The notes: a model not told the origin generated them from the sequence alone. DNA of 64,000 bases from Balanoglossus misakiensis (GCA_040954595.2 CM082578.2:2896831-2960830); one strand, 5' to 3'; shown: positions 11,101-38,610, counted from the stretch's first letter. Numbers and translations are program-made.

Positions 11101-14100
11101 AAGATACTGCAGACAATGAGAAATTACTGCTAGTGTCCTTAAATGTATATTGAACTAACAGTAACTATTAAAGATTAACAGCATGCTTAGTGTGTCTGCA
11201 TTTTGTTAAACACCAGGATTATTAAAGTTACGTGATTTCCAGTTCTATAATTTTATTTTCTTCATTAAAATTCTGTGTTTGAATGAAGTAAGTACCTACC
11301 TGATTAATTGGAATAGCAATCAGTGGCTGGTGGATACAGTTCAGAAATTTTGGGGCATCTTTAAGCTTTGATCCATTGGTAACAAATATGTTGTATGCCT
11401 CTGTGATGGTCTCAAGGGTACGTGGAGACTGTCTACCTCTCTGTGCTAGGGGTTTCCGAGACAGCTCCTTGCTGGTATCACACCAAAGACAAAAATGTCT
11501 ACCTACATTATCAAAATGTAAGACAGAGTGGTTTATATGATACAGAGTCAACTACATGACCACAGTCACATCAATGTATTGGAGTGTGATGTTAGTAACA
11601 CATCAAGACAAACAATTCACTCACCCCCAGCTCCTGATAATCCATACAGCTTTGTTTGGTATTCATAATCTCCACACAGAATAGCTTCAATAGTATACTG
11701 CCTGTAGTAAAAATGACAAATAGTAAGTTTACTGTACAGAGCATACCTGCTGGACATTTTAGCATACTATAGGAAGTAGGACAAGAAACTGTAATTTATA
11801 TACATAACCAGAATACTGAAAGAAATAGCCAAAGGTTAAAGCTAATGTCCTAATATTCAAATTTCAATATTTCTACATTGTTGTAGTAACCAACTTACTT
11901 CCACTTATAGCCATTTAGAGTGTTGACACTGTTTACATAATTTTCAAGTGCAAGCGTCAAGTTATGATGGTTGTCTCCAGCTTCAAACATTAACCAGATC
12001 ACAGTATTTTCCTTTGCATTTGGATGATCCAGGTTGCAGATTTCAAACACAAATTTCATGGAACCACCACCTTTGTCCCCACCCACTTTCACTTGGATGA
12101 TATCCTGGGGTATTGAGCCTCCATGCCATGTCAGTCTACCAAGTCTAGGATAAAGGTTAATAATTTGAGTAAACAGAACACATAGCTTTACAGGCAAATC
12201 AAAATATGAAAATTAGGCATGGTCCCCTTAAAGACACCACGTATGGCAAATGAAATCATCCTATTGTATTAAAGATGATTGCAAAGCATTTTTACCTTTC
12301 ATTTGCTTCGAGGTGTTGAACAACAAGGTTTAAAATGTCACATCCGACCAGCGGTGCAAGTCTGATTTCAGAGGCCTGTTTTCCAGTTGATGTCTTGATA
12401 GTAAACATGAAGGGCAGGTGTTCGGTGTAAATGGATGGGATCAGTGTAGCAAACTCTCTGCGGTCTTCTGCCTCACTGCGCAGACTCAGTTTCCATTTCC
12501 TCAGCCACCTGTAAAAATGATTAATCTATGACATGGTGCTGCAAAACTTGACTAGTGAGGACAGTGGTAATTAGAATCATGGTGTACAAATGTATTTACA
12601 GGAATAACATGGACACTAGTGCTAACTAGCAACTAATTAAAGCTCCACTTGTAATAGGTTTTCCTATTTATTTGCATAGTTGTTTTGTGTATCAACACTT
12701 TTTTGGTTCAACTCCCAATGCAGCAGGACGATATTACCTTATTTAGTTTGTCAAGTCAGCAAATATGTGTGCAAGTCTTGTTACTGTAGATCTTGAATCA
12801 TTTTGTCAACAGTAACAATGTTTGTTGCACGTGTTGTGTTTATAAACAAAGTGATTATGGTAGTGTTTTAAGATAGGGAGTAGAACAAGAACTTCTGCTG
12901 GTACACAGACCAAACATGCTGATAAAATATATAAAAAATAGAGAGCATGTCCAATTAATGCCAACTGCATGGGTACTTACTGCTTCAGTTTCCGGAATTG
13001 GTACCATGTTAGTCTCATATCCACTTTCAAGCTTAAACCATCACCCTCCTTCAGGTCTGGTAATAACCCAAGGTTACTGAGAATGGCTGCTCGTTCACCT
13101 TTATCAAGGGATTTCATTTCATGAGTCAGCTGTTCTCTAACACCTGATTCCCCACCACTGAGCTGGTCCCTGAGTTTCTGTATCAGTTTACTGCGATTAG
13201 TCTTGGTTTTTGTTGTAACTAAATTACTGTCCTTGCGAGGATTGCTGATACACTGCACAAACAGTGGCTGAAAAAGCAAAATAAAATAATGGAATAAAAA
13301 ATGAAATAAAACTATTTAAAATGGAAGATTGTGTAGGTGTTCAAACAGTTAAGGTAAGTAATAAATTCCTGGTAAGTATAGAACACTATCATCTGTGATA
13401 TGCAACATTTCAGGGTAGTTTATCATGCTATATATTGGGGGTCAATTTTAGGTCAAATTTATAGCTTGCATCACATGCTTGATAGAACAATGACCTTCCA
13501 TTAGCTACAATCTACTAGTACACAATTTCAATATTGTTTTGTTCTGTGTTTTTATTATTAATAACACTATAGAAAGAACAAATAGTCAACAGTTGTTACA
13601 CAAGTGTCATTATTGCCTGTAACAATTTGAAGCTTTTAGTTTACAATAAAGTTAGAAGAGTCTAGACCTGCCCTTGCATTTGGTGTTGACAGTAGTTTTT
13701 CTTTCAAGCATTTTGTAGCCAGATCTTCATAGCCAGGTATTTTTGACATTGATACATCTGGTCTCAGCAAGACGGACATAGCATGCTCACTTTCATTTAT
13801 GGGTTCTGTAGTTAGTGTGTGTATTTGGCTTGACTGAATGGTACGGTGCTCATGAGATTTAAGTTTATGAAGTGGAAAACTCTCCTGACAAGTTTTGCAA
13901 GTCATTGACTTTTCACCAAGACATGTTGTGAAGGGAATTGCAACTCGTATGATGCATGATGGCGATTCAATTTCAAACCGACAGATTGGACAATTGATGA
14001 CAGTAGAAGCTGCTAATACCCACTCACGTAAACATTCTCCACAGAAAACATGCCCACATAAAATCTGAATGGGGCCATCCAGCACTTCCTTACAGATGGG

Positions 14101-15234
14101 ACACAAAAATTCAGAGGAAATTTCATCAACAAAAATATCTGGGTGCAAACTGATAATATCATCATCAGAAAGGAAACTTTGTGCCTTTTCCCTGTCAATA
14201 GTGGCAATAATTTCTTCTGTGGGAAGTTTGGAAGTAGTTGCTGATTGGACAGATTTTGCAGAAGATTCACAATCACTTGAGGGCAGCTTCAGTAAATTAA
14301 CATATTTGTTCATTGATTGGCGACGTTTTGGAGTCCTGCCCCCCTTTTTGCATGACAATAACTTTTCACACACTCCACAATCCCCTGTCCGCGGATGGTT
14401 TGACCACACAGCATAATTTTCATTCCAAGTGTAGGTTTTTTGGCGAAGGATGGCCTCCTTTCCGTGTAAAAGTTTCCTACGGCAGTTGCTACAGAATTCC
14501 CTTGGATGTACTCCGTCCTCATCACAGGACACATCGATGTGAAAAATGACCTCAATATCGCACATATAGTCACGTACATTGTACTTACGAGCATCAGCAC
14601 GGTTTAAATTACCAAAACAAAATCTACATCGTGATTCAATGACTGTCTGATGAAATTCTAGCCCCGCCATCATGATCACACACACTCATTTAAAGACCGG
14701 TAACGGTAATATCAAACGATAATTGGCGGAACAGGTTTGAAATTCGCGCCGAATTTGATCGTCGTGCCCCAATCCGCAAGCGTATGCCCGGAAATATGAT
14801 TGAAATAGTTTAACTCTGGGAGGGGTAAAATGACAAAAAACTATTGGCAATGCCATAGAAACTCCGGAAATTTTTTATTTTGGTTCATGAAAGTGGTAGA
14901 ATCCTAAGGGGGATTAAAATTGTTCCCTATCAGGTCAAGACACTTCGATCGCAGTCTCAATGATGGCGATCGCCACAACGCAAAACAGAGAGCTCCATAC
15001 TCTATTCCAGCTTGTTCAATGACGTAAGGGGATTCCCCAACTACCCATGTGACACGACCAAATATGGTTGGGGGCGGGAAAATAGTGATCAAAACCGTTG
15101 TTGACATCGATGACGTGCCTGATAGATGACATTTAAAATTTCAATTCCCGTTATTCTCGCGAGGTTTCGAAAGTCTCGTTTTTAGCGCATGCGCACACTG
15201 CTTTTCTGCTATCAGTGCAGAATAAACAGACGTG
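8121..15234 (-). mobile_element. Chapaev / N-RAG-TP-like DNA transposon, both ends present
   Basis: Termini CACGTCTGTTT and AAACAGACGTG. Exact 4-bp TSD TCAC (8117-8120 and 15235-15238). Subterminal inverted GTGTGCGCATGCGC. Confidence 0.85.
9261..14673 (-). CDS. Multi-exon Chapaev/N-RAG-TP transposase: RAG1-like CND (Chapa) domain, C3HC4 RING, Zn finger, DDE core
   Basis: H-x7-CRFC...DEDGVHPREFCSNC...WSNHPRTGDCGVC. RING CPICKEVLDGPIQILCGHVFCGEC...CPIC. Core exons carry GGDKGGGSMK, CGDYE, FCLWC, PPALHISLG, TPKMHILEDH and GEQGMEGVH. The exon 1/2 junction (13668/13267) looks out of phase, so the gene may be slightly damaged. Confidence 0.8.
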
Positions 15235-16516
15235 TCACAGCCCCTCGGGTGTAATAAACGGCCGCTATGGCCCTCATGGCCAGGCAATAGGTGTTCACTA
15301 TAAATAGCTTTCAGTATGTTCTTTGATGTTTTCCTGTTGCAAGTAAAGTTATATCCAAAGGATAAAGAGCATGATGACAACCCATATAAGTGAACATAAT
15401 TCAGACATTTTGTTCATTACAGATGTATGCTGTATTCCTATTGCAACATCGACGCCCATGCAGGCCAAGCATTCTGTACAACAGAGCTATGAAGGAGCAG
15501 TCAGGTGGGATATGATAAATATTTCTAACATTAGATTTTTCTTTGGTTTTATATGATTTTCAAATGTAATACAGGTACTTCATGGCTACAATGTACATGT
15601 GTGAAATACTTGTTTTATAAGTAGTGTTTATTCATGAGATGCATTATCATTGTTTCATGGGTGTAGCTTACTCAGACACATTATCTTTCTAGCAAAGACC
15701 CAGATGAAAATGTGAGTTCAGCTGAAGATACAGAGGAAACAACATCAACACCAATGCAAGCTAAACAGTGCTTTCAAAACGTGTATGATGAGTCAGTCAC
15801 AGGAAGGTGAGATTTGCCCTCACTTGAAAAACTGGTAGTTTGTAGATTTATGCTTTGTCTACATGTACAAACATGCACCACAATGTTAGCCATGACACCA
15901 GGGCTTGAAAGAGGTCTGTTGCTTGTAATTTTTGCTGTGTATTGTATATTCACTGTATCTACATACATATTTCAACACCTCATCAATGATTGTAACTAAC
16001 CAAGCATTGGGTAATATTTTATTTTTATAGAAAAATAGCAGATGAAACTTTGACTGCAAGTGATGATGATGATGAGACTTTATCTGCTAGTGAAGATGAC
16101 GATGAAGCACGGGCGTCATGGAACAATGAAGTGTATGGGATAAATAATAAACTCGATCAACGAACACACAAGAAAATATTTCGTTTTTGGGTTGTTTTTT
16201 TGGTGTGAACGAGAACTGCACTCACGAACGGCCTACCGGCTTCTCTGTCACGTTTTCAACAGCAGAATATCCCCCTTTCCAATGACCAAACGCATGATAT
16301 GCGAACGAACGCACCAGCGCGGAACGCGGAAGTGCACAGTGCTTCAGGTGTATGACGTCATTTTAGTCATAACTGAACGCTGATGGCGCAACCTTCAAAC
16401 GCGCGCGCGCTCACGCGCCGGGGCCAGCAGACAACAGTTTCTGTCCGGCTCCGTTGCTAGGTAGGACAGATGCGCTCGTATACAGTGTATGTAAGGAAGG
16501 GTATGCAATCGCTCAT

Positions 16517-19500
16517 ATGGAGTCTGGGGACGTGCGTTACCAAAAAGGGGGGACAGGGGGGACACTTCTTTCTACGGAGCAGAGTGCCATCGAAAGGTAA
16601 GCAATAATTTTATTTTTTGCTTAGAATGTGTCTAGAGAAGTGTTGGATTAATCATGAATAAAAAACGGAAAAAAATACATATCCCTGTGTGAAACTGCGT
16701 GAGCTCAGCTCCTCCCACACGTCATGTACTTATGGTCGTGCGTTGTTCTTGTGCATCACTGTTACATTTACGAATGGCTTGACGAAAAGCTAGCACATTT
16801 TTTGTTTGAAAACAATAAACAAAAACAATGTCTTTGTATAAATAAGGATCAGCAAGCTAGATATTTTAAGCGTCCCACACAGTTTGGATTTCATATCATA
16901 CCAGTTTTTATTTTACATACAGCATTAAATTTTGATTAATTTTCCTTTGAAACCCACGAGTTACTAATAGTGACCCTAAAGGTCATAAATGAAATCACCA
17001 TCAAAGTCATCAAAAAGATTGCTGACAAATATCTCCATTTTCAGTACAATAACATAATTGGCAGGTTTTTTTTTTTCAATCTTAATAGTTTACATCAAAT
17101 ATTTAAAGTTACACCAGGGCGAATACTCACTGTGTCGGAGGCATACGAGACATACTGCACCACCCACAAGATAGGCAATATCACAAAAGATCAGTTTGGC
17201 CGATGTGTAACATCTGCCTTTCCAGAAGTGCAAAAGACAAGACGTCGAATTGATGGTTCAAGACAATATCCTTTGGAAAATTTTATTCATAAGCTCACAA
17301 TGTTGACTAGACATTCCATAGCTACACACATTTGTATTGTTCACGCTAGTATGCAATTGTAGTTTTGTACAAAGTCAAAATACTAAAGCGGTATAACCAC
17401 ATCTGCAAGTTTGTTTGATACCAACAATTGAAGATTAATTAACGTAAGACAAGCTGGCTGAATGCTTACAACAACATATATTGCGTAAAGTTTCACTACA
17501 TTGTTCAAAAGTTTAGTTTTGAGAATATTGAAAATGTTTTTCTCATTTCATTCCTTTCTTTGTTGACACAGATCTCTGCAAACATGGCACTTATTTTACT
17601 GAAAGTTGCAGGGTGATAATTTTGCTAGTCGTGCACCTATCCGTCCATTCAAATGAATCATGTGATTTGGCAGTGAAAAGCCTGATTCCCCCCCCCCCGC
17701 AACCAAATTTGTGAACCAACATAAAAGTTGTGCATTTGGATGCATATCCTACATGATTAACAAAGCATAACATTTACTAGAGTTCCTTAACCAATATCAC
17801 ATATTGTTACCTCCAACTGTCACTGAGGGAGAGAAGGGAAAACTTCTCAGATACTAATTTGGAGTATTCATATTCAAAGTTTTGTAAAGGTATTTCTGGA
17901 GAGTCTTGTGCTGATGTACTACCGAGAAAGGATGCCATATGCAAAGCTGAACAGCACAGTAATGAATCATGCATCATCTTTTCAACAAAATGTAGTCAAG
18001 TAACAGTGTCCCTCAACAGATGTGAGGCATGTAAAGCGTTGTACAACTGCCTGAAATCAGCTCGATACAGGAAACGGTCAAATACATCTGATGCATCCAG
18101 TGTTCGATGGGCATATTTGAGCCGGGAACAGCTCCTGCAGAAGCTGAAAGAAAAAAATAAGATTATTGAAAATGAGAGGGAGAAGAGAAGGTATCATACC
18201 ATACGCTCCGAACAAATTTTACAACAACTCCAACTATCATATCAAGACAATCATGACATGACATCTATATTTAAAGAAATTGAACAAAGAAATGGTATCC
18301 CATCAACATTCACTACAGAAATGGAGCTTCTCTGGAATTCACAGAGAGAGCATGTGCAAAATAAGAGAAATAGCTGGCATCCAAAGTAAGTTGTATTCAT
18401 TTTTCTTCAATTTTTTAATACAATTTTGAAGGGAACTCAAAACAATAAAAATAATGACGTACCATTTACTCTCTTCAGTAAATATAACAAAGAACATGAT
18501 ATACATGCAGAAAAAAGACTTCACAATAAAAATACTCACATATCACAATTTGTGAACTGTCTTTACAGAATTTTAGAGATTTGCTTAAGACTGTGGCACA
18601 GGTCAAAGGAAGGCTACAGGGAGTTGAGAGAAAGTGGAGTGCTGAAACTGCCATCAGAGAGATTGCTCCAGTACAGGAAAAATAAAGTACCCCCAAAACC
18701 TGGACTGGATGCAGATGTCCTGCAATGGATGAAAGAAGATGCTTTAGGTCAAAATGTGGAGGAAGTGGGCTACTGCGGTGCAATATGTTTTGATGAAATT
18801 AAAATACAGGTAATAGCAATATGAGCACCGTTTTGAAATTGTATCCTCCAAATAAGTTTTGTTTACTTGTGTATCAGTTTCTCCAATTACAACAGTGCTG
18901 TAAATAAGATGTGATGACTAAGAGAACGGCCACTGTGATATTGACATTCAAGTGTAATACCAGAAATTACTCTGACCGGATTAATATGACACTTTCACTA
19001 TTATCTGAAGACAATGAACTTCAATATGTGACAAGCTATGCATCCAGGACAGCAGCTAAAGATTATATTGAGATGATGCAAACCTACCTTGCATTTATTG
19101 TTCACAATCACTGCTCTGTTCACTGTATGGTAGTCAAACCACACAATTTTTTTTTTGCATCTACATCTACGACCATTTTCATGTCACGAACTAATGATGA
19201 ATAGAGGAAATTTCCCCTCATTATCACTTCTACCCATCAGGGAGACCTGCAGTTGAAGAAAAATGCAGACACCTATGACATAGTTGGTTTTGTGGAACTT
19301 GGGGAGTACTATGACATAATGAGCCAGCTCCAAAGCAGTGAGTAACAAAGCATTTATTCACACTTGACCTATACCTTTGCATGTATTGTGGATAATTTTC
19401 TTGAGTCACCAGTGAGTTTGTTGCGTCAGTGGTGCATCGTATGGGCTTAGAGGGCATACTCTGTACCACTACAATGTATTGTTCATTTCCCCCCAGATGA

Positions 19501-21326
19501 TGGAGATCTAAAAATGGCTTCACATATACTACAGATGAATTTCATTGGGTGCACTGGTTTTGAATTTGCCTTTGCATGGTTTCCTACCAGAGAAGTGGAC
19601 GCATCCACACTTTTTGATATCCACTGGCGAGCAGTATACGCTCTATTTCAGCAAGGTTTCAACGTATTTGCTAGCATATGTGATGGTGGTGAAGCCAACA
19701 GGCAGTTTATCATGACTCATTTCAAGACAGGGTTCTCTCAGGCGTTGGAAAACAACTTCACCATTCCAAATATGGTAACAGGTGAAAACTTCAGTTTCAT
19801 CATGGATCCCTCGGTGAGTTGCTAATTTTTGTTTAATTAACACTACTTAAAAATGTGTTGACATCTTGGTTCACATATCTAACAAAATTGTTGTATAGTG
19901 CTTACCATCAATATGTAATTCCTATTCTTGGCTCACGAAAGTACTGCCGCACGATGCAACCACATCACTTGTGACTTCTGCTCGAGCGCTGAGGTCATGG
20001 AGTTCTGTCATATTCAACTTCGGAGTTTTCCAGTGCTGTGAAGTATTACTTTATAGTTAAAATAAATTGTCTATTCTTCACGGAGAAAAATTCTTGAACA
20101 AATTTTCAGAATAATTGCATTTAAAGAGGGTGAAGGTTAAACTGACATTTTTTTTATTGTAAAATCTTGTATCTACTCATGCCTCTTTATCTGTTTGTAA
20201 TGCACATGTGCACACTATAAAAGATAGGAAACTTTCTACGGTACAGTAATACTAATTCAGTTGTTATTCATTCCACACTAGCACAACTTCAAGAAATTAA
20301 GAAATAATCTTGAAAAGAGTACAAATTCAGGTCACTCACCACGCTGCCTTACCATATATAACGATGACGGACCCCACAAGATACTCTGGTCTTGTCTGGT
20401 TGAAGCATATATGCATGACAGAAAAAACAACATAGCTACAAATCCAAGGCTATCAGATGAACACTTCCATCTCACAAGTGCTTCAAGGATGAGAAATCAT
20501 CTGGCAAATGAGATTTTCACAGCAGAAACAATTGAAGTCGTCAAGGTCAGTCAAATTCCTACAAAAAAAGACAACAGCATTTCAGTGACCCATTTTTCAT
20601 GATAAATAAGCACAACATTTAACTCATGCTTAAATATAGACTGAAATGTTTAGAAAACAGAATAGATTGCCTCAAAATTTACACACATCAGTTATGTTCA
20701 TTTGAAGTAAATTTTATTCACATCAGAATTATGAAGAATATCTCAACGCCAATGGATTGAGAAATTGGCAAGATGTGTCCGCCACTATCCATTTCCTAGA
20801 AGAAGTCAACGTCCTTTTGAAGAATTACACCAATAAAACACCATACAGGTAGATTGCTTTTAGTTTAAAATCATACTCTTCACTCCAGCAAAATGCTGTT
20901 AAATTTAATAAACATACAAACTTTGTATTTCATGTCTTCATTTGTACATTTCAGTTTCATTTTTCCAAAAAAGAACAATCATTTCAATTACCTATATATC
21001 TTGTCACGTTGTACCGGTATACAGCTCCATTGACGACCAACGCTTCCAGTCAAACCAAGCAGTCCTGGAATGGTTTCTGAAGTGGAAGGAGAGTACCTCC
21101 AATGCTACTGTAGGTCCCAAGGAACAAAGAAGAATGTTCCTTTCAGAGAAAACACTCTTTGATGTCTGCAGCATGGTCCACGGTTTCCAAAGCTATGCAA
21201 GAGAAATCATTGTGAGAGGGGGTTCTGTGAAAGCATTCAAGACCAATCAAGACAGCACGGAAAATATATTCAGTTGTGCAAGGGCCAGCAATGGGTCGAA
21301 CTCAAACCCTGATGCTCTCCTTTATG
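16517..21326 (+). CDS. P-element (THAP9-family core) transposase with an N-terminal RFX-like winged helix; last exon not located
   Basis: Approximate exons 16517-16596, 17089-17265, 17801-18385, 18569-18809, 19241-19337, 19497-19813, 20282-20545, 20728-20849 and 21025-21326 splice in frame. Motifs: WHPKILEICL, LPSERLL, FDEIKIQ, ICDG, DPSHNFKKLRNN, RMRNHLA, NQDSTENIFS. Confidence 0.8.
17266..17800 (+). other. U12-type (minor spliceosome) AT-AC intron
   Basis: 5' end ATATCCTTTG. Branch site TTCCTTAAC at 17783-17791, with AC 9 nt later. Splicing restores the frame and gives GSRQYCYLQLSLR. Confidence 0.8.
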
Positions 21327-21649
21327 GTAATTAGACAACAAAAATCAGCAACCTCTTTAAATTTACTCAAATGACTCGCACATTGCAACAGAACTCATAG
21401 CCTTTAAAGCTAGATAAAACAGACAAACTGTCAAAATCTATGAGAAAGAACTTACCTTTCAAGTAAACTGCACCATTGTTGTTCCTTTACATTCGTTCCA
21501 CAGCATAAATAAAAGCCCCAATAGCTACCAATTTTTGAATCCCCACAATTTCAAAATGGCGTTTATTTTGTCGACTAAAGATAATGAAAAAATTTAAGTA
21601 TTTTATTTATTTAAATATATGCTTAAAGTGGCAGCTACTGGGGCTTTAA

Positions 21650-22425
21650 GATGGGTCCCTGGGATCTTTTTGCTCGTTGCTATGGGCCTTTATAGTACAT
21701 TACACCCCGATTTGGACTAAGCCGTTTTCAGAGTCTAGTTGAAAATCTGCACGATTGTGTGCACACCCCCTGTCCGAGTATGTTTACGGCAGCTACCGCC
21801 CGGCCATAGGCCGCCACGCTAATACGGCAAAGCAGCGGTCAGCGATAGCGTGCGCGTCCTGTAACCACAGTAACTGGATCGAACGCTAAAAATCCAATGT
21901 TTTGTACACAGAGATTTTGTACCGTTCACGAAAATCCCTAAGGCTTTTTTCATAGGCCACGTACGCCAGTCAAATTTGACCTGCTTGTTGAGAACGCACT
22001 TCCGCACAGTGTGACGGATCGTTTTTTCGGTTTTCGTCGTGCTAAGAAGCGATACCGGTGGAAGAGTGCGTCCAAAAACACCCAAAATCGATGACTTTTT
22101 CAGGTGTGGTACGGGTATGCTGAAATCGTAGGATACAACGATAATATTCGAAAACAAAATCCGTCACGATCTTCCCTGGTTCAAGCAACTAATGAATACG
22201 TATCAAGTTCGTTTTTGAGGTCACGGAATATAAAGCCTTAGGCTTTTGAAATTTGACCTAGCTAAATTGCATATCAATGGCGTCAGGGGCGCGCGCTCAC
22301 AATCGTGCAGATTTTCAACTAGTTACCAGCCCCTTGTTAGACTCTGAAAACGGCTTAGTCCAAATCGGGGTGTAATGTCCTATAAAGGCCCATAGCAACG
22401 AGCAAAAAGATCCCAGGGACCCATC
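21650..22425. mobile_element. Kolobok-type MITE inside the P element
   Basis: About 90-120-bp inverted repeats starting GATGGGTCCCTGGGATCTTTTTGCTCG. Flanks are TTAA and TGAA. Confidence 0.65.
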
Positions 22426-23420
22426 TGAAACGGTAACATACTTGTATGAAGGTTGGATCAATTAAAGAACCAAAGATGCAGCAAGCTTGTGACAAGGGTG
22501 GATGATTAAAATATTACCTTACAGTTCTCTGTATGTACCAAGCTTGTCACAAGGATGGATGGATTAAATATTAACTTACAGTTCTTGCCCCCCCCCCCAC
22601 ACACACACACAAACACACTTTTTCTCTGCTTGAAAATAAATGAAGCAATATTAGATAAAAGGTTTTTTTTACATCTTAAAACTTCCCACCTACACTATTA
22701 ACGAAGGTGGTGCTCATGATTTAAGATAGTTATTTTGTTTACAATTGCTTTAAGAATTTCCAAATAATGTTGATTTTACAATGACAAAGTCTTTGCTTTA
22801 GACTCAGCGTACATTCCAGATGTAGCACGATTGAGAAATTGCAGTTTTTACCATGAAATATCGTACCTCTACGAAAAACAACTGTCAAATAAATTATCAT
22901 TGGCGATCAAAGACGATCAGCTTCTATATTTAACACTCATGATTTAAACACAAGAAATGGATGCTTAGACACATGGCGATATCCTTGTAATAATGTCAGG
23001 AGACGTTTATTAATAAATCAATCCCGGTTAAGAATGCAAACATAGTTCATTTCGTTGCAATATCCAACAGTACAGACAATAAGTAACAGTAAATTTGCTA
23101 AATGCGAGATGGTCATGAACGGTAGACCGGCACCCATTACGGGCATTACTACAGCAACAATGACCATGGACGGACGCGACTGACAACATGCAGCAAAGTC
23201 TAGCTAAAAGATTTACCTATCTTTTAACGATCAATTCATCAAAACAGCAGCATCGCTGATGGTATAAAATCGCCCTTTCCGAATGGATGTGGATGATAAA
23301 CATGTCTGACGAACACTGGGACCGCGACATAATGCTTAGATGTGTTTACAACAAGAAAACCGTTAAAATATGGCGGGTGTACCTCGCGCATGCGCACAAC
23401 GCTATTTTCGTGTCATAACA

Positions 23421-23837
23421 GGTGTTGTGCCGAATTCGGCCCCATGCCGAATACGTCCCCGCGCATGCCTTGACAAACAAACCATGGCTTCTAAGGGATA
23501 AGATCGGCAGGTAAAGCTGCTGATTTCAGCCCCGTTGCCGATTAAGACCCCAACTAAAGTCATGTTAACTATTGAAAGCTAAAAGTGATGGTTTCGGCCT
23601 AAATGGGTGAATATCTGCCCATGGCCCTGATTTGTTGGTGGAATGAAATTAAATCCTTGCGGTAATGCAATGTCCAAGTTTACAGTGCAGTACAATGTAC
23701 ATTCATGCACAGCCTTACATGCACGTTGGATGGCAAAACTTTCACACAAGAAAATGCAATATTTCAGACACATGTTACTGATGACCCGAGCATGCGCGGG
23801 ACGTATTCGGCATGGGGCCGAATTCGGCACAACACCG
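23421..23837. mobile_element. MITE of unassigned superfamily
   Basis: About 47-bp inverted repeats GGTGTTGTGCCGAATTCGGCCCCATGCCGAATACGTCCC. No clear TSD. Confidence 0.55.
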
Positions 23838-24285
23838 GAAATAGAGCTTCGACTGTGAGTTAGGATCGACTGACGATATTTATAAAATAAAAATATTGAA
23901 GTAGGATTTGAGTAACCATGAAATATACTCATTTTTGGGGGAAAAAAGTATGCTTTATTAAATGTAGGGATCTTGTACACTATGCATGGGACCTAGCCTG
24001 GCCCCAGACCAGTGTTTAGAATTTCTAAAACACACTGGTCTGGGGCCAGGCTACATGGGACCATGTACACTATGTATACGGCATGGAACCGAAGTTTTTT
24101 TAAAACCTGCAGTGCTCAACTTTCAGTGTTTTGCAAGTTTGTTTAACACTTGTAGCAAGTGTGTATTATACAAGCTTGTATGGGGTGGTTCACAAGCTGT
24201 ATCCAAGCTTGTAATTTTAAGCCGTAATCTTATCCAAGCTTGTAAAACCTTTATACAAGCTAAGAGCTAGCATTTCATAGTTGTG

Positions 24286-26645
24286 TCATCCTTGCAGCAA
24301 GCTTGTACAAGGTTGTGACATCTTGGTGACTTTCGTAAGGGGTAGCTTACCACTGAGTAAACCCATCCATGAATCAACGACAAAGTTATTACTTTTGACT
24401 GCAGTGGTGATAACCTGTAACAAAGAACCCTGGTGTTGCTTCAATATATCTTCTGTATACAACTTTTCACAGAGGGTTTCCAGAATACATGTAAACAGGA
24501 AACAGCCATCAGATATATGGGTCAAACCTCCCCTATCATGCAATTCCATGTGCTTAAGACTTTCAGGAAACTGGGTGCTGACTACAAGGTCAGAGTAAGG
24601 CACCTGGAGCTGTTGAAATAACTGCAACAATTCCCTGTGTATAGAAGATTTGGCCCGTGTTTTCGCAGACTTGCCTGACATGGCATTTACCATACTGTTG
24701 TAGCACTGACTGATCAACTTGCAAATACACCAGCCACCAACTTTTCTCAGTTTCCCTTGCATTGCCCTATTAAATGTTACAGGCGTGTCAGAGAGATCAT
24801 CTACCAATACTACATCATCAGATAAACAGACGTCTCTCACTGGTACAAGACTTTTCATCAAACACTTATTCACCTCCATGATGACAATCATCATTACAGA
24901 ATGAAACTGTGGAGGAACCACACCAGTACCTGAACCCAACAGACCATACGACCTCAAAACAATTTTCCAATACTTATGAACAGTACTGTCCCAAATCACA
25001 GCAGCAATATCAGCACACTGACCTTTCAGGATTCTGTTACTAATATGCTTTGTGTTTCCCATGCATGTCTTAATGGAAGAGTTACTCAAGTGATGAAAGA
25101 TATACCGAATAAAATCCACCAAAACACCATTCCTAACTTTGGGATCAAAGAAACCCAGAGATTGCATTATGCCAACCGTCTCCGTTGAATTAAGAGGATC
25201 ACTACCAAGTTTCAGCAGCATGTCATCCAGAGAAATGTCATTATTAATGGTACATTTGGGAATTGTATCATCACATGGAGAGTCAAAGACCACAGTGGTT
25301 ACAACAGGTGTGGAGGCCAACCTATCCATATCATCAGAGTCAGGTGGCAATAGAGGACTCAAACATTTGGAAATAGAAGGAACTACAAGGTGCCCGACTG
25401 TCACAACAGATACTTCATAAAAACTTCTCACATGTGGGTGGGCTGGTATGATGTTGTGAGAAAATCCTGGTAAAACTCTAAGGCATTCAGGGCTTGCTGC
25501 CCTCGTGTATGCAGTGTATGCTTGACCGGGTAAGAACATGGCCACATCACAAACCTCAAGATTATTCAATGTGGATCCTTGGCTTTTATGAATGGAAGAA
25601 GAGTACCCCAACTGTAATGGAATTTGGAGGCGTGTTCCAATTGTTTTCCCTGTGTCATCAGAGACAGAAAAATACCTCCGTCTAACTATAACCGTTCTAC
25701 CATCTTCAAAACTAACCTTAGGGAGCCCACTCACAAAATCAATTACATGACCATGCAGACCATTACACAACAAACCACCACTAACATTGTAAAGGTTGGT
25801 AAGAAGAATGACAGGACAACCTTTCTTCAATATTAGTTTCCGAACAGCATTTACAGCTTTACCCGAAGTACCACAAACACCAGTATCTCTAGCTAAGAAA
25901 ACTTGAGGTTCACCAGGAAATTCCTCAAGCCTAACAGCATTATATATAGCAACATCTTTACGACGTGGATACAGTCTAATATCAACACGTGGAAGGGGCC
26001 TTGTCAATAAGCTAAGATATTCAATTGTAGCCTTGGATTTAAAACCCTGGCGTATATCCTCTAATGCCCTTAGAAATCTTGGATCTCTCTGCCGCATAAC
26101 TGTCTCAAGAAATACACAAACATCTACGGTACAATCCCATGCAGTCGACTTGAAACAATAGTCAGGCATCTCTTTCTCCGTGCCAATACAATCAACTGGG
26201 GGAAGCTGGCAGAAATCACCCGAGAAAATCACACGAATCCCTCCAAACGGCCCAGTTGTACCTTTAACAGTTCGCATAATGAACTCAATTTTATTGAGCA
26301 GACTGCCTGACAACATGGAAATTTCATCAACTATAAGCACTTAAGTTGACCGAAGCTTATTAACAACATACTGCTTTTCCTGAACCAATTTAAGTAATTG
26401 CAAATTACCCCATTACCCTGACCAATGCCAAAAGCTGAGTGAACAGTTGAACCACAGATCAAACTGGCAGCCTTGCCAGTGCTGGCTGTAACAAGAACAC
26501 CTTCTTCTCCGAGTTTATGCATCTGTTCTTTGATTACATGGCGCAACACAACGGTCTTTCCAGAGCCAGCTCTACCAGTAATAAATGTGTTTGCATTATT
26601 GCAAATGTTCTTGACAACCTGCTGTTCATCTGTTAATTCTGACAT
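24286..26645 (-). pseudogene. Intronless Pif1-family SF1B helicase with a C-terminal extension; one frameshift near 26340, 3' end cut by a repeat
   Basis: GRAGSGKT, ASTGKAA, GSTVHSAFGI, DEISML, GDFCQLPPV, MRQRD, LKKGCPVILLTNL, QIPLQLGYSSSIHKSQGSTL, GQAYTAYTRA. C-terminal VGGWCI...DRGGLTHIS. Confidence 0.85.
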
Positions 26646-29600
26646 TTTCCCCTTCAACAACAATTCCACCAGATAAATTGTATACAAAACTGGTCGCACC
26701 TCAGAACACTTAACACCCTCTCAAACTGTCAGTCACCAAACTCAAAGCAAGACGCGGGAAAATCAGGTCATGTGACAAACGAAATGTACCACCAGCTACA
26801 AGACTTGAAGTTGAACTGGGAAGATTTACCTTAAAATTAATTTATATCACATAGACCTAGGGAGAACAGCAGTAAAAGTGGTAGAAAACGTCATACAGAA
26901 GCAATATCGACGCCGGAAATAGAACTTACACCAGAGAAAAGCTGCAGTGCGTTCACAAATATGCAATTGATACCTCCCTACACAGTAATAGATGACTGAA
27001 ACCACGGACACAAAAAACACCTAAAAACACACCTCCTAGAATAGAAGCCTGCAAACCTTATTATACATGTCATGAAATCGATAAAATTATAATAATAAGC
27101 ACACACTTAGCTATGAAGTTCCGATGACATCAACAGCTCGACGATACGCGCGCGGTGTCCGTGTATCACACTGCCACCATGATCACGAACTGAAGATGAA
27201 GCTGACGACGCGCGGGAAAGTGGTGCCGTTTTTCTGCGCAAGACTACGTATACCTTTTACGGCGAAATTTGCGACATTCATAAAACACCATTTTACATCA
27301 GACGCAAAATCGGTAACGCACGTCCCCAGGACGAGTGACACTTTTCGATCGATAATATCTCGAATGTTCGACCGACTTTTGAAAATTGAAAAGCCAGACA
27401 TTAGGTTTCTATCTAATCTAAAACGCATACTCTGATTTGGTAGCGATCTTCTTCGTAATAGTTGCCAAACGGCGGTGGGCTGAAAATTCGTTTCATACCC
27501 TGTATATATGTGTACTCACGTACACGTACACAGCAACGGCGCGCACGCATGCGTACATTAGGTAGAAGAACAAAAACAGCTCAACACGATCGCGATGCGA
27601 TGTCGTACAACTGTACAAACAGGGCATAGACAGGTACGCGTACGGTGTGGATTTGTTAACTGACCCAGCTTTATTGCAGTTCTCGTTCACACACAAAAAA
27701 AAACGAAATATTTATTGTGTATTCGTTGAGGGCGCCGCGTTTATGTTAAGTTTATCATTATCCATACACTTTATTGTTCCATGACGCCCGTGGATGAAGA
27801 CGTTGGAATAAATTTCAGAACTCCCGGGTATGTAAACCTATTGATTTGGGATTAGATTTTCATCAGTAGTCCTGGTAATGTAGTACGGGAAAATAATATA
27901 ATGGAATACATTGACAACTTCAACCATTTTTATCTTTCATTTAGAAATGTCCCCAACTTATCGATGGATGATGATCTCCACAATTTAACAATGGAAGATG
28001 AAGTATTTCAGACAGATACTCATGGTACAAATGATGATGGTGTCCCAGTTGCAAGTCCTGACAATCTGTCAAACGCTCAAAACATGGATGTTATTACAGA
28101 CACAAAATGCATCGCCTCTGTACCTGAAATTTTGGATCTTTTAAAACAATTGCATGGAGATTCATGTAAACGGGATGGATGCCAACGTGTACTAACATAC
28201 AAGTCATCTTTAGTTGGAACTGCACTTACTGTTGAATGGACATGCTATTCTGGTCATCGCGGAGGGAGGTGGCAGTCCCAAAGAAGGTTTGATGGAATGT
28301 TTTCTGGAAACTTTCAATTGGCTGTCTGTATCTTGCTGTCTGGTAACAGTCATAAGAAGTTTGAACTCCTGTGCAAGTTTTTAAATCTGGCTTGCATATC
28401 ACACACTACTTTCAATCGAATCCAGCGACTGTATGCTGCTCCTGCTATACAGAACTACTGGGACAATATGGAGAGGGACATGTTGGACTCATACCAAGGG
28501 CAAAAGGCTATATTGTGTGGTGATGGCCGCAATGATTCTCCTGGACATTCTGCTCAGTATTTGTCCTACAGTTTGGCTGATGCAAACAAGCACTGCATTG
28601 TCCACACCGAAGTGGTGGACAAGCGCGAAGTAAATGGTAAAAGTCCAAACATGGAACGGCTGGGATTTGAACGATCCATGGACAAACTGAAGAGGTCTGT
28701 AGAGATCGAGGAATTGATCACAGATGCCCATGTACAGATTGCTGCAGTGATGCGTAAGTTATAGCTGCAGCACTTGTATTGGGAACCCCAAATATCAACT
28801 TCAGTAGAGAAATGGGGATGTAGCAATATGCCAAAGCAACTTACCTAGCTAAAGTGTTCTCTTATTTTGAGTGGCAATGTGAGATTGAAGATAATACAGC
28901 AAGGTAGATACATTCATGTGTATGGTTATAAGATACACTTCCTGTTGTGTACAATCTTTGATCTTACCTTGCCATTCATTGGCTGGGAACTACAATTTCA
29001 CCTACTTAGGTGTTCCAAATACAAGTGCTGCAACTGTAATTGTTAACTTTGTAGTTCTGTTGAATGTGGGGATAACTTTCAAAAAGAATTTTCGTCTTCA
29101 ACATGATAAATGAGTGTAGACTGTTGTTGCAATCCATGTATGTTTATGTGCTAGCTAAATATTTAACAAAAATCATACAATTTTTGTAATACAATGCTGT
29201 TTTCTTCCATAATCTTCAGGCAACTGTGACAAATACAAGGACATCAAACATTCATGGGACCTTTGGCATGGAGGTAAAAACATTCATCGAAAAGTCCTGG
29301 AGGTAGGCTGTTACTTCAACCTTTGATCTGGTGTATGCCAGTACACAAATGAAATATCGTAGCATATGCCATCTGAATTCCATCCAAAGTGTGAACAAAA
29401 TACTAATCATATGACACATTTTCAGTGTTACTGTTGGCCATTCACCATGTCAACTGCAAATTTATTTTATTCAGGCATCAAAGCCTAAGAATTGCAAGGA
29501 CCTTTTGCACTGGGCTACTGCAGTGAGAAACCACTTCTGGTATGCTGCAAGAGAATGTAATGGAAGTGAAATAAAGATGAAGGTAACAATAATTTTTGAC

Positions 29601-30599
29601 GTATCAGTTTTCTGTGCACCACAGTAGCTTACAATCATAAGTTGCATGCATGTACAAATAATTCTTGCAAATCAATTAGCTGCTGTGCAGTGTGCCCTCT
29701 AACAAACAATTTTTAAAAGCTTTGAGTCAATTTGAAGATTTCTAAACATTTCTCCGAGCAAGCCCTATACCTTTGCTTGTAGTGTGTAAAATTTTATGAG
29801 TCACCAGTGAGTTTGTTGAGTCAGTGGCATGTCATATGGCCTTAAAGGGCTCACTTCTGCTGTGTATTTGTGTGTGTTTGTAGATGGATGTATGGATGTA
29901 CATTGTATGTGAAGGGGTTGACTGATGGGTGTCTGATCCCAGACATGTCACCATATACAAAGAAGTTTAGCATTACTGAACAATACATGTCTTTCTGTAT
30001 GTTCTTTGAAGGCAATCTGGTTTGGAATATTGCATCATGTCGTGAACGAACATGAGTGGGTGTTAAATTCTGATATTTTCCCATTTGTAAGTATCAGTTT
30101 TAGCTGCAGAAACCTCCATATGTATTAAAAAATAAGCAATGACAGCTGTGTATATTTCTTCTATCAGGTTCATTGCCAAGTATTCCAAACTGAGCAAGAG
30201 GTTTTTCCCAGCACCTGTTTTGAAACCAAAGACGTACGCGTACATCACTAATTTGCAGAAGAGTGTTTTCCAAATGCGATTGGGTGTTGAAGGTCATATG
30301 TCACAACATGTGTCAATGACAGAAGATCATCCTGGCCGGATCTTCAAGAGAGTCAACATGCTCCCCTCTCCAGACATTGCCAAATTAGTAAAAGCACATT
30401 TGAGTCGGTTTGAAGGGTCCAAAAGTTCCCAAGAAAGTAGAAACACCTCAACATGATCGGCCATTTTTGTACCCGGAGTCACTGAAGAACCGCAAAAGCA
30501 ATTTTAAAACAAGTGACAGTGAAATGGACCTTGTAAGCTAATAAAACTCTTTACACTGGGTTCATGTAAATAAAATGTTTTAATCACCAGATATGTGTG

Positions 30600-32451
30600 C
30601 TAATCTTGTACCTCACCATCTTTATAGCCAACATATATATTGTTTGGGCTTGGAAATCTGCCCCTTATTGCCCAGACACAACAAGAGGGGACAACGCGCC
30701 GATTGCCAGCCCCCAGTTTCCCATGCTGCCAATAGATGTACTGTCTGTACGCAAAATGTCTAAAACATGCATTGTCTCGTGACTGTTCTTGGGCATAGGT
30801 ATCAGCTATGCACCGCATAGCTATCTCAAGAACATTCGCATCCAGAACAAGATGACTAAAGAGATAGTTGTCGGTGATGCATCTTTGGCTCTGACGAATG
30901 GCACAACATTTGTTTTCCTTCTGAGTGGGCATTTCACGGCAATGCACCAAGAAGGTAAACTACCAGGTCCGGGTTGTGGATACGGGTTGGGAGCTGGATG
31001 CTGTTCCTGTTGTACGTCACACCATGCCTCTGGCTGTCGTCGGACTAGCTCTAGAGTCAAAGTCTCCAGATCTTCCCTGCTTGCCTTTTGTACAAAATCC
31101 TGTTTGACAAAAACAAAATACCCCCATGAGGTAATCTTGCACTGACAAAAATTTACAACTTTTTTATGTAAACTTATTTTTCATAAACAAACAACGTTTA
31201 TTGGAATCTTATTTTGCAGTGGAAAAAATGTCATCATTGTGTTTCATAATATACTGTGTGAAAGTAAAATGTGTGCAAAATTAGAATGGTTTCTCACGTT
31301 GGGGCGGCACACTTCCTTGAAAACCATATATGTACAAACATTTAAAAGATATATAATTGCGTGGTTTCTCTTCAGTTTACCCCCGTTTTGTTTTGTTTGT
31401 TTGCTGTTGTTGTTGTTGTTGTTGTTTTTTTGGGGGGAGGGGGCGATATCTCAGTCACTAATGCATTTTCAACAAGTTCATTCCATGATCAAGCAGAGTG
31501 CACACAACATTCATAGGACATACCTTCATCTGCCTCTCATTGTCTTGCAACAATTCTGCTTGTGTTTGCTGTTCCTGGGTGTCACGTGGCCGTTTTTTTA
31601 CAGATTCTGAAGCAGGTGGTTGTACCTCAGCCTGTTCATCATCAGATGTTGAATCCTATGAAATGATGATGATGATAATAATAATACTGATACTTGCATT
31701 CACATTATTATTGAGCCTCAAAGATGTTTTGATCATAGCTTACACTCACCTACAAATATGACTAGTTGTAGTGAGCGAATCATTGGGTTTCTGACGGATT
31801 TGTCAATGCAACATCACAAACACTGCACTGACGATTTTTGTAACAAAGGTTTGTATGAAATCTATACTACGACAGGTTAAAATCATAGCACGCCAAAACT
31901 GTTCGGAAACACTGCAACAAATGTTGAGCTGAGCAGTTACATGGTACGTCCGAGACTTGGTGCGGCCCGAGTATTGAAATAGCGAGTGTTCATATATTGC
32001 ATCGCAATCGTTGCATAAAGTTGTTTACGCTAGCGAACGCCGAGTTTGCATTGGAATACGGCCGAACACTGAAAGTTCGTGTCAGGGTTATGACGAATAA
32101 CTCTATCTACGGGAGCTTTACAGTACTGATATGGGCCTCTTAAAATTCGAGAAACAGACTGTTTGACAGCACGTCCGATCCCGCCACATCGATAATCAAG
32201 CTTACATTGAATTGATGATTGAGGGTGACAATAAGACGTAGACATACCTGTATAGCTGTGTTTGAACACGGCCGTCGCTTTCCACAAGAGCATGCCGTTT
32301 TACAAAACTCATCGACTGCTCTGCACGGACATGCTCCACGTCCTTTCTTCCTTGCACAAACCCCACTGCAGTTACACGATCTGGGGTCTTCACTTTCTGC
32401 CACGTCTAGCGCTGCTGCGATATCACTGAGAGCGAAGCTATCTTCGGCCAT
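30600..32451 (-). pseudogene. Kolobok accessory gene KolX (N-terminal CXC-like Cys cluster; C-terminal P2X7 ballast/nanor-like domain)
   Basis: Exon 1 has CNCSGVCARKKGRGACPC...CKTACSC. The last exon has CREMPTQKENKCC...CIT...FRHFAYRQY..WQHGKLGAGNRRVVPSCCVWAIRGRFP. There is a small frameshifting deletion near 30945. Convergent with the transposase. Confidence 0.75.
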
Positions 32452-33019: not shown

Positions 33020-36000
33020 TGTAGTATCCTGAACACTGTTGACCTTTGACCCAGTTTTGACTACAATTTCATGGTGAATACTCGGAAAAATGTCCCAAGG
33101 ACACAATGCTAACGGGAGCCACATGAAACCTATAGACATTGGAGGTCTGACGAGTTTCAGTGTGAACGATGACCCGAACACCATTTCTCAGCGATGGAAG
33201 AAATGGAGGAGAGCATTCGAACTGTATTGGTTAGGAAAGGGAGTAACAGACGAAGCACAGAAACGAGCATTACTGTTGCATACGGCAGGGCTGGAAGTGC
33301 AAGACATTTATTTCACACTGATCGGTGAAGATGCAGCTGCAACGAAAAACTACAAAAAGACACTGCAAGTATTGAACGATCACTTCTTTCCCAAAGCAAA
33401 CGTCCCAGTTGAGAGACACATGTTCAGACAAATTATGCAGGCCAGTGATGAAACGGTCGATCAATTTGTGTGCGGACTCAGACAGAGGGCAAGCACATGT
33501 GAGTTTGCTGAGAAAGAGGATGAGCACATAAGAGACCAGCTGATCGATAAATGCTTTTCACCGCACATGCGCAGAAAACTACTTGAGAAACAGAACGCTA
33601 GTCTCAGTGACTTGTTGATGGTAGCGCATGCCCAGGAAGCCGTAGATGCTCAAATGCAGTCGATGGGAGGAAGCACACCCCAGCAACCCCAAGTAAATGC
33701 AGTTATTGGGAGGAAGCAAGGTCAAAAGAGAAATACCCCAAGCGCAGGTACGAAACGCTTTGGTGGGAACACTTGTCATAACTGTGGGAGACAAAGACAT
33801 TTCGCGAGAGATCCTACATGTCCAGCTAGAGGACAGAAATGCAGACATTGTGAGGAAACAGGACATTTTGTCAGAAAGTGCCCTAAGAAAATACCCGAAA
33901 GTACACGCCAGGCAGAAAAACCCAAACGCTATCAAGGTCATGGGAGAAACAGAAATGAGAAAAGTGACAATGCCAACTACATTGAAAGCGAACAATGTGA
34001 ACAGAAACCGGCATACGTGTTTACTGTTGATGAAAGTCCTAACTATGACAACGGAGTTACTTCACTGAATATCGGAGGCGTCGATGTGCCAGACGTTCTG
34101 ATTGATTCAGGGGCAACTTGTAATCTGATGGGTCAACCTACAAGGGAATACCTGAAAACCCAGAGAGTACGTTGTACGTCGCGCAAGACCGCACGAGTAC
34201 TATTCGCCTACGGTTGTACGGAACCACTGCCAACGTTAGGTACGTTCACCGCCAATATTGCGTCACCAGATGATTTGAGGTGCACAGCTGACTTTGTCGT
34301 CATAAAGGGCGGAGGCAGAACATTGTTATGCAGAGAGACTGCGGAACGCCTGAAACTGCTTCGCATAGGACCCACAGAAATAAACAGCGTCAACAGGAAA
34401 TCGGACGAAGACATCCGAGCAGAATACAAAGATATACTACAGGTTGTCGGACTGTTGAAAGGCTACGAACTCAAACTGAATATTGATGACTCAGTAAAAC
34501 CTATCGCGCAGCCAGTTCGCAGAATTCCATATGGGCTACGAGCAAAGGTCGATGCCAAACTGGATGAACTATTGTCAATGGGAATCATTGTAGAGATACC
34601 TGAAAGACCGACAGGTTGGGTGTCGCCATTAGTCGTCGTGCCGAAGGCAAACAATGATGTCAGAATATGCATTGACATGAGACGCGCGAATGAAGCCATA
34701 GTCGTGAACGTCAACTGATTCCAACGGTAGATGAGGTACTGCAAGACATGCACGGCAGTACAGTTTTCAGTCGTCTTGACTTGAAATGGGGCTTTCACCA
34801 GATTCAGCTCAGTGAAGACAGCCGCCATATCACTAATTTTGCTACGCACAGAGGACTGTACATATACACACGACTGATGTTCGGTGTAAACTCTGCGCCA
34901 GAAAAGTACCAACAGATAATACGAGATGTATTTCGCGACTGCAATGGAGTCGAAAGTATTGCCGACGACGTGATAGTACACGGTAAAGATGACCGCGATC
35001 ACGATGAGAAATTGTTCGCCGCTCTAAACCGCGTGAGAGAAGTTGGACTGACTCTGAACGCCGAGAAATGTAAGTTCAGAATGGCGAAGTTGACATTCTT
35101 CGGACAAGTACTGACACAGAGAGGTGTAAGTCCGAGCGAAGAGAAAGTAGATGCGATCCGAGATGCAGAACCGCCGAAGAACGCGAGTGAGACCAGATGG
35201 TTCATGGGTCTTGTACAGTTTCTATCGAAATTCATTCCTGATTTGTCGTCGATAGCGGAACCGATACAGAGACTGACACGCAAAAACGTCATGTTCGAGT
35301 GGAAGACTGAACAACAGAAAGTGTTCGAGAAACTGAAAGAGTTGATTACACGAGCAGAGACACTAGCATATTTTCGCATGGATTGTAACACGAGAATAGT
35401 TGCAGACGCGTCACCATACGGGTTAGGTGCGATCCTACTACAGCTACAAGATGGTGAATGGAGAGTCATATCATACGCGTCGAGGAGTCTCACAGACGTA
35501 GAACGGCGATATAGCCAAATGGAGAAGGAAGCATTAGCGTTGGTATGGTCATGTGAGCGCTTCAACATGTACATCTTCGAGAGAGAATTTGAGCTTGAAA
35601 CGGACCATAAGCCATTGGAGTGTATATTCTCCAAAAGCTCAAAACCGTCTGCCTGAATTGAAAGGTGGGTGCTGCGATTACAGGCCTACAACTTCAGAGT
35701 CGTTTATCGTCCCGGGAAAACAAACATCGCAGATGCACTGTCTAGGCTGAACTCTAGAAACTATCGCGATGAGGGAGACAGATACGACTACGCTCGTACA
35801 GTTGTCGAAAGTAGTGTACCAATTGCTTTGACAGCGAGGGAGATTGAGCGAGAATCCGCTGCTGATCCAGAACTAAACTGTGTGAAAAACTGTGTAAAGA
35901 CAGGTGACTGGAGAAACTGTAACCTGCAAGCCTATACACATGTGAAAGACGAGCTATGCACGGTGGGAGAGATACTTCTACGTGACAGCCGAATCGTCAT

Positions 36001-37517: not shown

Positions 37518-37764
37518 CCCCCCCGGCCGTAAAAACTGAACAGTCCCTAAGTACAATAATTAGTATAAAATATTCCTCCAGTGTCTGCACTGTAGTGAAT
37601 CAATATATGTACAGGTATAAATATTCTTAAAACATTTGCCCCTCTTTAAAAAATTTGGGTGAGGGAACCACAAGTGACAACCCTTTTTATCCAGTGAGTT
37701 TAATCGAAGATTATGTATGGGTTGCAGCATACATGTAAATGTGTCACATCTTGGATGATTTTAA

Positions 37765-38340: not shown

Positions 38341-38379
38341 TTAAGTTTTTGACCTCTCCTGTTCAATTAATCATTTCAG

Positions 38380-38610
38380 GCGTATCTCATCCAGTGGTCA
38401 GACCCAGACCGGCTACATGCCATATCAACATCAATAGAAGAAAACAGCAGGCTTTATTGATGGTACCCATGTAAGAAAAACAAACTTGCAGGGTGATGTC
38501 AGAGATTATGTCAACAGGAAAGGTTACATGTCTGTTGTGCTACAACTTCTCATAGATGATCATATGATCATCAATGATGCGTACGTAGGTTGGCCCGGAT
38601 CAACACATGT
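38380..38610 (+). pseudogene. Exon 2 fragment of a Harbinger transposase
   Basis: Acceptor TTTCAG|, then AYLIQWSD...AGFIDGTHV...DYVNRKGYMSVVLQL...AYVGWPGSTH (HARBI1 DDE motifs). Confidence 0.75.

Follow-up and report, generated by a model that had tools for sequence, protein, structure and literature searches.

A P-superfamily transposon with an RFX-like N-terminus and a Pif1 helicase partner gene in Balanoglossus misakiensis

Target-site duplications (TSDs) in the P superfamily range from 7 to 8 bp. Its closest described members, the Drosophila P element and THAP9 (structure 6P5A), carry 31-bp terminal inverted repeats (TIRs) and a spliced transposase gene, the product of which combines a helix-turn-helix (HTH) region, an RNase H fold with the catalytic residues D-D-E, a DxxH motif and an insertion domain. 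The same set of features is found in an 11.7-kb element at positions 16108–27792 of a 64,000-nt stretch of Balanoglossus misakiensis DNA (GCA_040954595.2, CM082578.2:2896831–2960830; this whole stretch is subsequently named the window). According to the available part of PMC7776569, the zebrafish THAP9 element also has subterminal inverted repeats ∼400 nt inside its ends, as does the window element, and the TSD of the P element measures 8 bp, in contrast to 7 bp here. Unlike P and THAP9, the window element bears an RFX-like domain instead of THAP, a transposase apparently without the C-terminal domain (CTD), a predicted AT-AC intron and a second gene that encodes a Pif1 helicase with a CTD-like domain and, in the family, often a PHD finger.

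Other cut-and-paste transposons that encode a helicase are KolobokH and AcademH, the latter with a helicase of the RecQ type. The helicase of Kolobok-1_CCri lies on the complementary strand, likewise opposite to the transposase; it is of the RecQ type in Kolobok (both points from the available part of PMC9587614) instead of Pif1 as here, and the transposases of Kolobok and Academ belong to other superfamilies. A split transposase domain is not described in the available parts of PMC9587614 and PMC10045372. Helitrons (RepHel of Helraiser, 7LCC) also contain a Pif1-family helicase within a transposon. In contrast to Helitrons, the window element has TIRs and a TSD but no HUH Rep, and its helicase is much closer to cellular PIF1 than to that of Helraiser. 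A winged helix as in the N-terminus of the transposase is present in RFX5 (the RFX protein that the family profile matches best) and RFX7, both minor-intron genes according to the accessible part of bioRxiv 10.64898/2026.08.20.745718, whereas here the winged helix heads a transposase.

Helicases are mentioned for Helitron, KolobokH, AcademH and virus-derived elements and not for P in the available parts of PMC8788227, PMC9587614, PMC10045372, PMC6431247, PMC10799480, PMC11417382 and PMC10027918; in the last of these, as far as its text is accessible, RFX does not occur. A full-text literature search, which covered result listings and the openings of abstracts and had Repbase and subscription journals outside its scope, yielded no description of Pif1 in a P element, of an RFX transposase or of a U12 intron within a transposase. 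An earlier sequence-only reading of the window had not recognised the lineage as described, and the literature search agrees with it: with RFX for THAP, Pif1 as its partner, a CTD that is likely split off and a minor intron predicted in the transposase gene, the lineage is apparently undescribed, a Repbase entry being possible. That reading had also proposed a two-gene P lineage consisting of an RFX-headed P transposase (RFX-P) and a helicase. This proposal is supported by the recurrence of the pair at three further loci (L008, L011 and L012), and we are highly confident that such a lineage exists.

The element, its ends and its transposase

The borders of the element are defined by the following features:

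16101–16107 (plus strand): left 7-bp TSD, GATGAAG; empty-site joint with 7 common letters
16108–16138 (plus strand): left TIR, 31 nt, begins with CA; gapped similarity runs on to ∼16220
16524–16541 (plus strand): 18-bp subterminal inverted motif, a candidate transposase binding site, 417–434 nt inside the left end
27312–27329 (minus strand): partner 18-bp subterminal motif, 464–481 nt inside the right end
27762–27792 (minus strand): right TIR, 31 nt; second block at 27675–27704
27793–27799 (plus strand): right 7-bp TSD, GATGAAG; same empty-site joint

The 31-nt TIRs of the left and right ends are 97% complementary, and the extended terminal inverted similarity covers 113 nt at 76%. When the element is removed in silico, the interrupted host exon reads open. 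Contigs of runs X1 and X2 contain an empty-site joint that leads from 16100 to 27793, with 7 letters that fit either side. Both runs represent one sample, possibly the window's own, and the short side of the joint comprises only 23 nt; the joint therefore confirms the boundaries but is not independent. A related Kolobok-like copy at ∼51.6 kb diverges directly after the insertion site and is thus not the source of the joint. The unit of TIRs and 7-bp TSD claimed by the sequence-only reading is borne out by the complementary TIRs, by GATGAAG on both sides and by this joint.

The two 18-bp subterminal motifs match perfectly (E 5e-5), and the left one includes GTTACC, an RFX half-site by consensus. 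Full X-box palindromes were not enriched at the element ends and half-sites were few. The X2 contigs lose their match to the window at 27310, just inside the right 18-bp motif. In X1 and X2 contigs the depth near the element ends amounts to 10–20 times that of the interior, which hints at many short derivatives; depth does not represent a copy number.

The insertion host (14700–16107 and 27800–31000) is itself a Kolobok-like element with a spliced transposase gene on the plus strand and a convergent P2RX7_C open reading frame (ORF) of the KolX type at 30603–30959; KolX is described in the available part of PMC9587614. The related Kolobok-like copy is ∼71% identical and extends over ∼51.5–55.5 kb.

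The transposase gene is composed of nine exons (16517–21326) that join to 728 amino acids (aa) without a stop:

16517–16596 (plus strand): exon 1, predicted
17089–17265 (plus strand): exon 2, encodes the greater part of the RFX-like winged helix (PF02257, E 1.2e-5)
17266–17800 (plus strand): predicted U12-type AT-AC intron in the RFX wing, with ATATCCTT donor, TTCCTTAAC branch site at 17783 and AC acceptor, phase 2
17801–18385 (plus strand): exon 3, end of the RFX-like domain, cysteine cluster and coiled coil
18569–18809 (plus strand): exon 4, HTH region and first catalytic D (18792)
19241–19337 (plus strand): exon 5
19368–19460 (no strand assigned): short repeat in intron 5; many contigs have loose ends at both edges
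19497–19813 (plus strand): exon 6, second catalytic D (19682) and DxxH (PF21787, E 8e-4)
20282–20545 (plus strand): exon 7, insertion (GTP-binding-like) domain, by the profile of the relatives
20727–20848 (plus strand): exon 8
21025–21326 (plus strand): exon 9, catalytic E (21260), terminates at a GT donor (PF21789, E 8e-5)

The catalytic residues D356 (18792), D456 (19682) and E707 (21260) are intact in the motifs named earlier, and the DxxH motif is present as well. Single window exons match PF21787 and PF21789 below the cut-offs of these families; when joined, the exons reach 458 bits with a profile built from 37 relatives. Using the L008 ORF as query we retrieved 56 transposase relatives, among them proteins from Mytilus, Pinctada, Tegillarca, Haliotis and Priapulus. 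PF21787 is above its cut-off in 55 of these 56. With regard to the GTP cofactor, which along with a 17-nt staggered cleavage characterises the P superfamily, PF21788 reaches E ≤ 0.05 in 8 of the 56. Against 177,635 PDB sequences the family profile gave four matches, one of which is unrelated; the Drosophila P transposase 6P5A was matched with E 3e-11. The transposase is a member of the P superfamily, with HTH, split RNase H, DxxH and insertion domain all present, and the P-type DDE transposase with intact D, D and E that had been read from the sequence is confirmed by the 728-aa join and its profile score. A word-indexed search with exon 9 produced no matches, and the transposase and CTD profiles found no loci in a viral collection. 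FastTree trees were built without cellular Pif1 and without THAP-P outgroups, so that we make no claim on origin or co-evolution.

The final transposase exon, which encodes the last ∼45 aa of the family, was not found in the element. One candidate with an acceptor at 26271, antisense to Pif1, scored 28.8 bits in comparison to null maxima of 21.5–26.6 bits in 14 control stretches and was not adopted. Its frame (26271–26344, plus strand) is antisense to Pif1 motif II and agrees in register with the beginning of the last transposase exon of the family. It closes at the TTAA that also stops Pif1, and its score exceeds that of the best control by only 2 bits.

A resemblance of the spliced N-terminus to an RFX winged helix had been suggested before. 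On exon 2 alone, PF02257 scores 26.3 bits against a gathering score of 27; it yields 27.6 bits in the intronless relative at L008 and 28.0 bits in the relative P0098. Among PDB sequences, the family profile aligns with RFX5 (8ZJR, E 0.019) and RFX1 (1DP7, E 0.49). The N-terminal profile of the family matches 39 of the 56 relatives (36 of the 39 were rows of its training set). Domain scans revealed no THAP in the window exons, in L008, L011 and L012 or in any of the 56 relatives. These scores bear out the suggested resemblance and support an RFX-type winged helix in the place of THAP. A perfect RFX X-box palindrome, by consensus, is located at 164–177 of L011, ∼1 kb upstream of the transposase ORF; none of this type was seen in L008 or L012.

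The second exon is followed by the predicted minor intron. U12 motifs were sought as a ATATCCTT donor and a TTCCTTRAC branch site close to an AC acceptor; from base composition, 0.03 donor motifs and 0.01 branch motifs would be expected per kb. In intron 2, TTCCTTAAC is positioned 18 nt before the AC end, and the remaining seven introns are GT-AG. The AT-AC join keeps the frame and completes the wing motif, adding 12.4 bits on the N-terminal family profile versus 0.5 bits for read-through. By these criteria intron 2 is of the U12 type, with its splicing predicted; L008, L011 and L012 have no intron at the corresponding position. The minor intron of RFX5 and RFX7 presumably sits at the same position. 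An RFX5/7-like host gene was probably the source of the RFX domain and contributed its minor intron as well, the latter being lost in the intronless relatives.

The Pif1 gene and the recurrence of the pair

On the opposite strand, the right half of the element is occupied by the helicase gene:

26344–26645 (minus strand): N-terminal part of Pif1 with ATG at 26645 and Walker A; frameshift near 26400–26417, then TAA at 26341–26343
24351–26340 (minus strand): Pif1 motifs II–VI, linker and helical C-terminal region; ends at the GT donor 24350
24361–24780 (minus strand): helicase-borne helical domain, probably homologous to the CTD of P transposases; 76 relatives, structural match to 6P5A chain B
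21512–24062 (no strand assigned): nested non-coding repeat cluster between the genes, with inverted-repeat units at 21512–21647, 21645–22430, 23421–23836 and 23994–24053

PF05970 was matched in two window ORFs, and the 2B domain and the features of a superfamily 1B (SF1B) fold are present. The convergent Pif1 helicase of the sequence-only reading is therefore real as a gene on the opposite strand, but it had been overlooked that the helicase of this copy is broken. A 76-nt intron that would remove frameshift and stop was rejected, since the stretch aligns with coding sequence in relatives. A 3′ exon downstream of the donor 24350 was not found in the element. The window copy is defective: Pif1 contains a frameshift and a stop, and the last exon of both genes was not found. 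These defects, as well as the AT-AC intron and the extra domain on the helicase, go beyond what had been read earlier.

Against human PIF1 the helicase reaches 162 bits, compared with 34 bits against the Helitron transposase 7LCC, and its nearest relatives are from Branchiostoma. Residue 1 of the amphioxus relatives aligns with the ATG at 26645, which leaves no Rep-like domain in front of the gene; in line with the earlier statement that no Rep/HUH motif is visible, no such family was detected in 8 element ORFs and 13 further ORFs. The viral collection contained 7 generic Pif1 loci, all without CTD. Over 25244–27296, 3 letters and 1 gap distinguish X1 contig 5 from the window. A diverged Pif1 relative (∼82% identity, with a 304-nt gap) covers 26051–26600 in X1 record 6 and X2 record 12 of the same sample and may represent a second family.

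In L008, L011 and L012, transposase and Pif1 likewise lie on opposite strands, and the four transposases including that of the window are 30–46% identical. L008, together with L009 and L010, was located with a profile of Pif1 and CTD, L011 and L012 with the transposase profile; both of the latter (2/2) hold spliced Pif1 exons on the opposite strand, the last visible one ending at a donor that faces the transposase. L008 contains an intronless RFX-P ORF antisense within a Pif1 intron, and the transposase stop is 23 nt away from the Pif1 splice donor. No TIR was found around the L008 transposase alone. The narrow spacing and the absence of a transposase-only TIR argue against a secondary insertion.

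Cluster P0104 (12 members) is a one-chain fusion of transposase residues 1–243 with the PHD tail of Pif1, and its junction is common to 9 further members that were checked; the L008 layout and one inversion would explain this fusion. For both the Pif1-CTD protein P0068 and the transposase P0091, ENA lists a contig of 397,642 nt, a match in size only. Protein P0038 as query gave no matches against genome contigs. L011, L012 and protein P0173 are filed in bacterial metagenome-assembled genome (MAG) records; the introns of L011 and L012 point to animal DNA, and all three are likely host contamination of the MAGs.

We considered that Pif1 could be unrelated cargo, a Helitron remnant or a separate insertion within an RFX-P transposon. 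The middle of the element is full of nested repeats, and L009 and L010 show no transposase in the available DNA, as cargo would predict. Yet the pairing recurs in distant families, the gene has neither a Rep domain nor room for one, and its score is far higher with human PIF1 than with 7LCC. Cargo is therefore largely refuted already, and we regard it as very improbable. The sequence-only reading had named a Pif1 insertion with its own boundaries as the case against a two-gene lineage: the L008 spacing speaks against such an insertion. As to the co-occurrence of both genes inside the same TIRs, the pairing itself recurs at three loci, and common TIRs are visible only in the window.

The helical domain and a possible split of the transposase

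The last 300 residues of the helicase as query yielded 76 representatives. We scanned 53 of them, mostly picked by length: 14 had a Pif1-type Pfam family, 7 had a PHD finger and none contained a P or THAP family. By profile, helicase sequence was found in 19 of the 76, including 18 of the 20 with room upstream; 15 of these 19 were rows of the training set. The helical domain occurs in none of the 56 transposase relatives, and P RNase H, searched by profile, in none of the 76 domain proteins. This complementary distribution was counted in favor of a split.

A catalytic E motif can be scored in 36 of the 56 relatives, and their proteins stop 24–95 aa after E. In 6P5A the E motif falls within residues 509–561 and chain B reaches at least residue 709; these 36 transposases thus end without the P CTD. 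For the window this absence is derived from the relatives, its own last exon being missing.

That the helicase tail resembles the C-terminus of P had been noted before the structural search. The domain model has a predicted local distance difference test (pLDDT) score of 84, and 6P5A chain B ranks 4th among 48,161 chains (Z 6.5, root-mean-square deviation 3.1, 93 of 118 residues), its match covering model range 166–305, which is exactly the motif region. Comparison of the transposase and CTD profiles indicated no homology, and the ESM Atlas returned unrelated helical families only, or no match. A word-indexed search with the C-terminal region of the helicase had no matches, in contrast to a profile-free search that did retrieve relatives; an Rfam search also gave no match. 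Given the prior prediction and the complementary distribution, the match of the model is suggestive but not decisive.

In Drosophila P the CTD is all-helical, is attached via a flexible linker, sits between the RNase H and GTP-binding domains of another subunit and contacts the looped end DNA as well as the target DNA (available part of PMC7776569). A domain linked so flexibly could plausibly move to another chain. We favor, with moderate confidence, a split transposase: the CTD would ride on the opposite-strand Pif1 and recruit the helicase, and the two proteins are predicted to form one transposition complex. The RFX wing would bind subterminal sites, probably the 18-bp motifs ∼420–480 nt inside each end, and the RNase H and insertion domains would cut and join as in Drosophila P. 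The helicase-borne CTD would take the place of the Drosophila CTD between RNase H and GTP-binding domains, at the looped single-stranded end DNA and the target DNA. After strand transfer, the tethered Pif1 would spend ATP to unwind the paired end and strip off the transposase, leaving gaps for host repair; disruption of protein–DNA complexes is a listed Pif1 activity (available part of PMC8788227). In some families the PHD finger may help to choose chromatin targets. We consider the full version of this proposal evenly balanced between right and wrong: an ancient, widespread animal P lineage with RFX and DDE core on one chain and Pif1, CTD and PHD on the other, in which the motor disassembles the strand-transfer product and the DNA-binding domain derives from an RFX5/7-like gene with a minor intron.

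Several observations weigh against the split and the proposal built on it. Unrelated helical chains score equally with Z 6.5, a total of 195 chains attain Z 5, and 6P5A chain B is recovered by neither Foldseek nor HMMER. L009 and L010, two of the three Pif1-CTD loci, are without a transposase in 6.2 kb each (1.2 and 3.9 kb of it upstream), and no CTD is present in the available DNA of L011 and L012. TIRs around both genes are visible only in the window, as other contigs stop before recognisable element ends. The window transposase sits on a long branch and shares no more than 35% identity with any relative; with its broken helicase the window copy cannot show function. Within the family the RFX Pfam matches are weak, with E ≤ 0.05 in 4 of 56 relatives and a score above gathering in 1, and the position of the minor intron in RFX5 and RFX7 is a presumed one.

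An alternative is a real two-gene element whose proteins act separately, in line with the role in gap repair at excision sites that the sequence-only reading had suggested for the helicase. The transposase would then work without a CTD, Pif1 would promote donor-site gap repair from the sister chromatid and thereby raise copy number, and the helical domain would have another role. All co-occurrence data agree with this explanation, and the structural match is not significant by itself. Accessory helicases are known from Kolobok and Academ lineages (PMC9587614 and PMC10045372, available parts), and P donor breaks are mended by host homologous recombination or non-homologous end joining involving a helicase (available part of PMC7776569). 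Since separate action leaves both the CTD-less transposases and the CTD-like domain on helicases unexplained, we judge it unlikely, but the strongest competitor of the split.

The split could also be real with the subunit serving as a structural CTD only, Pif1 being a fused passenger whose ATPase is dispensable for transposition. The CTD matches are short and lack a helicase in 57 of 76 cases, mostly gene fragments, and copies of the ends of a non-autonomous type look abundant despite the broken window helicase. The helicase motifs are nevertheless kept across families that are only ∼25–45% identical, indicating selection on the motor, and we find a passenger role improbable. The split with a working Pif1 motor remains the reading that we prefer.

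Surroundings in the window and meaning for the P superfamily

The remainder of the window is rich in other mobile-element sequences and related genes:

9261–14685 (minus strand): second spliced RAG1-like or Transib/Chapaev-like gene, with RAG1_imp_bd and RING at 13639–14685; further exon-like ORFs at 10568–10960 and 9261–9656
33078–37132 (plus strand): ORFs of a Gypsy-type long terminal repeat (LTR) retrotransposon with gag knuckle, reverse transcriptase-like part and integrase; frameshift and stop
37760–39720: 585-nt inverted pair
41464–42444 and 62190–63815: reverse transcriptase fragments of the long interspersed nuclear element (LINE) type
44710–48264: fold-back element, arrays of 150–190-nt units in inverted orientation
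56668–61568 (plus strand): RAG1-like gene comprising a 596-aa RAG1 core (PF12940, E 4e-69) and a RING ORF at 56668–57123, the RING part apparently frameshifted

If the proposal is correct, a P lineage has its own Pif1, likely fused to a domain that grips target DNA, and L008 offers two intact ORFs for a direct test. In amphioxus, Pif1 genes of this kind have been given the annotation of normal helicases, which may distort tallies of cellular or Helitron Pif1. The minor-class intron inside the transposase gene could mark the origin of the RFX domain. The element would then represent a naturally split eukaryotic DDE transposase in combination with a swap of the DNA-binding domain from THAP to RFX.

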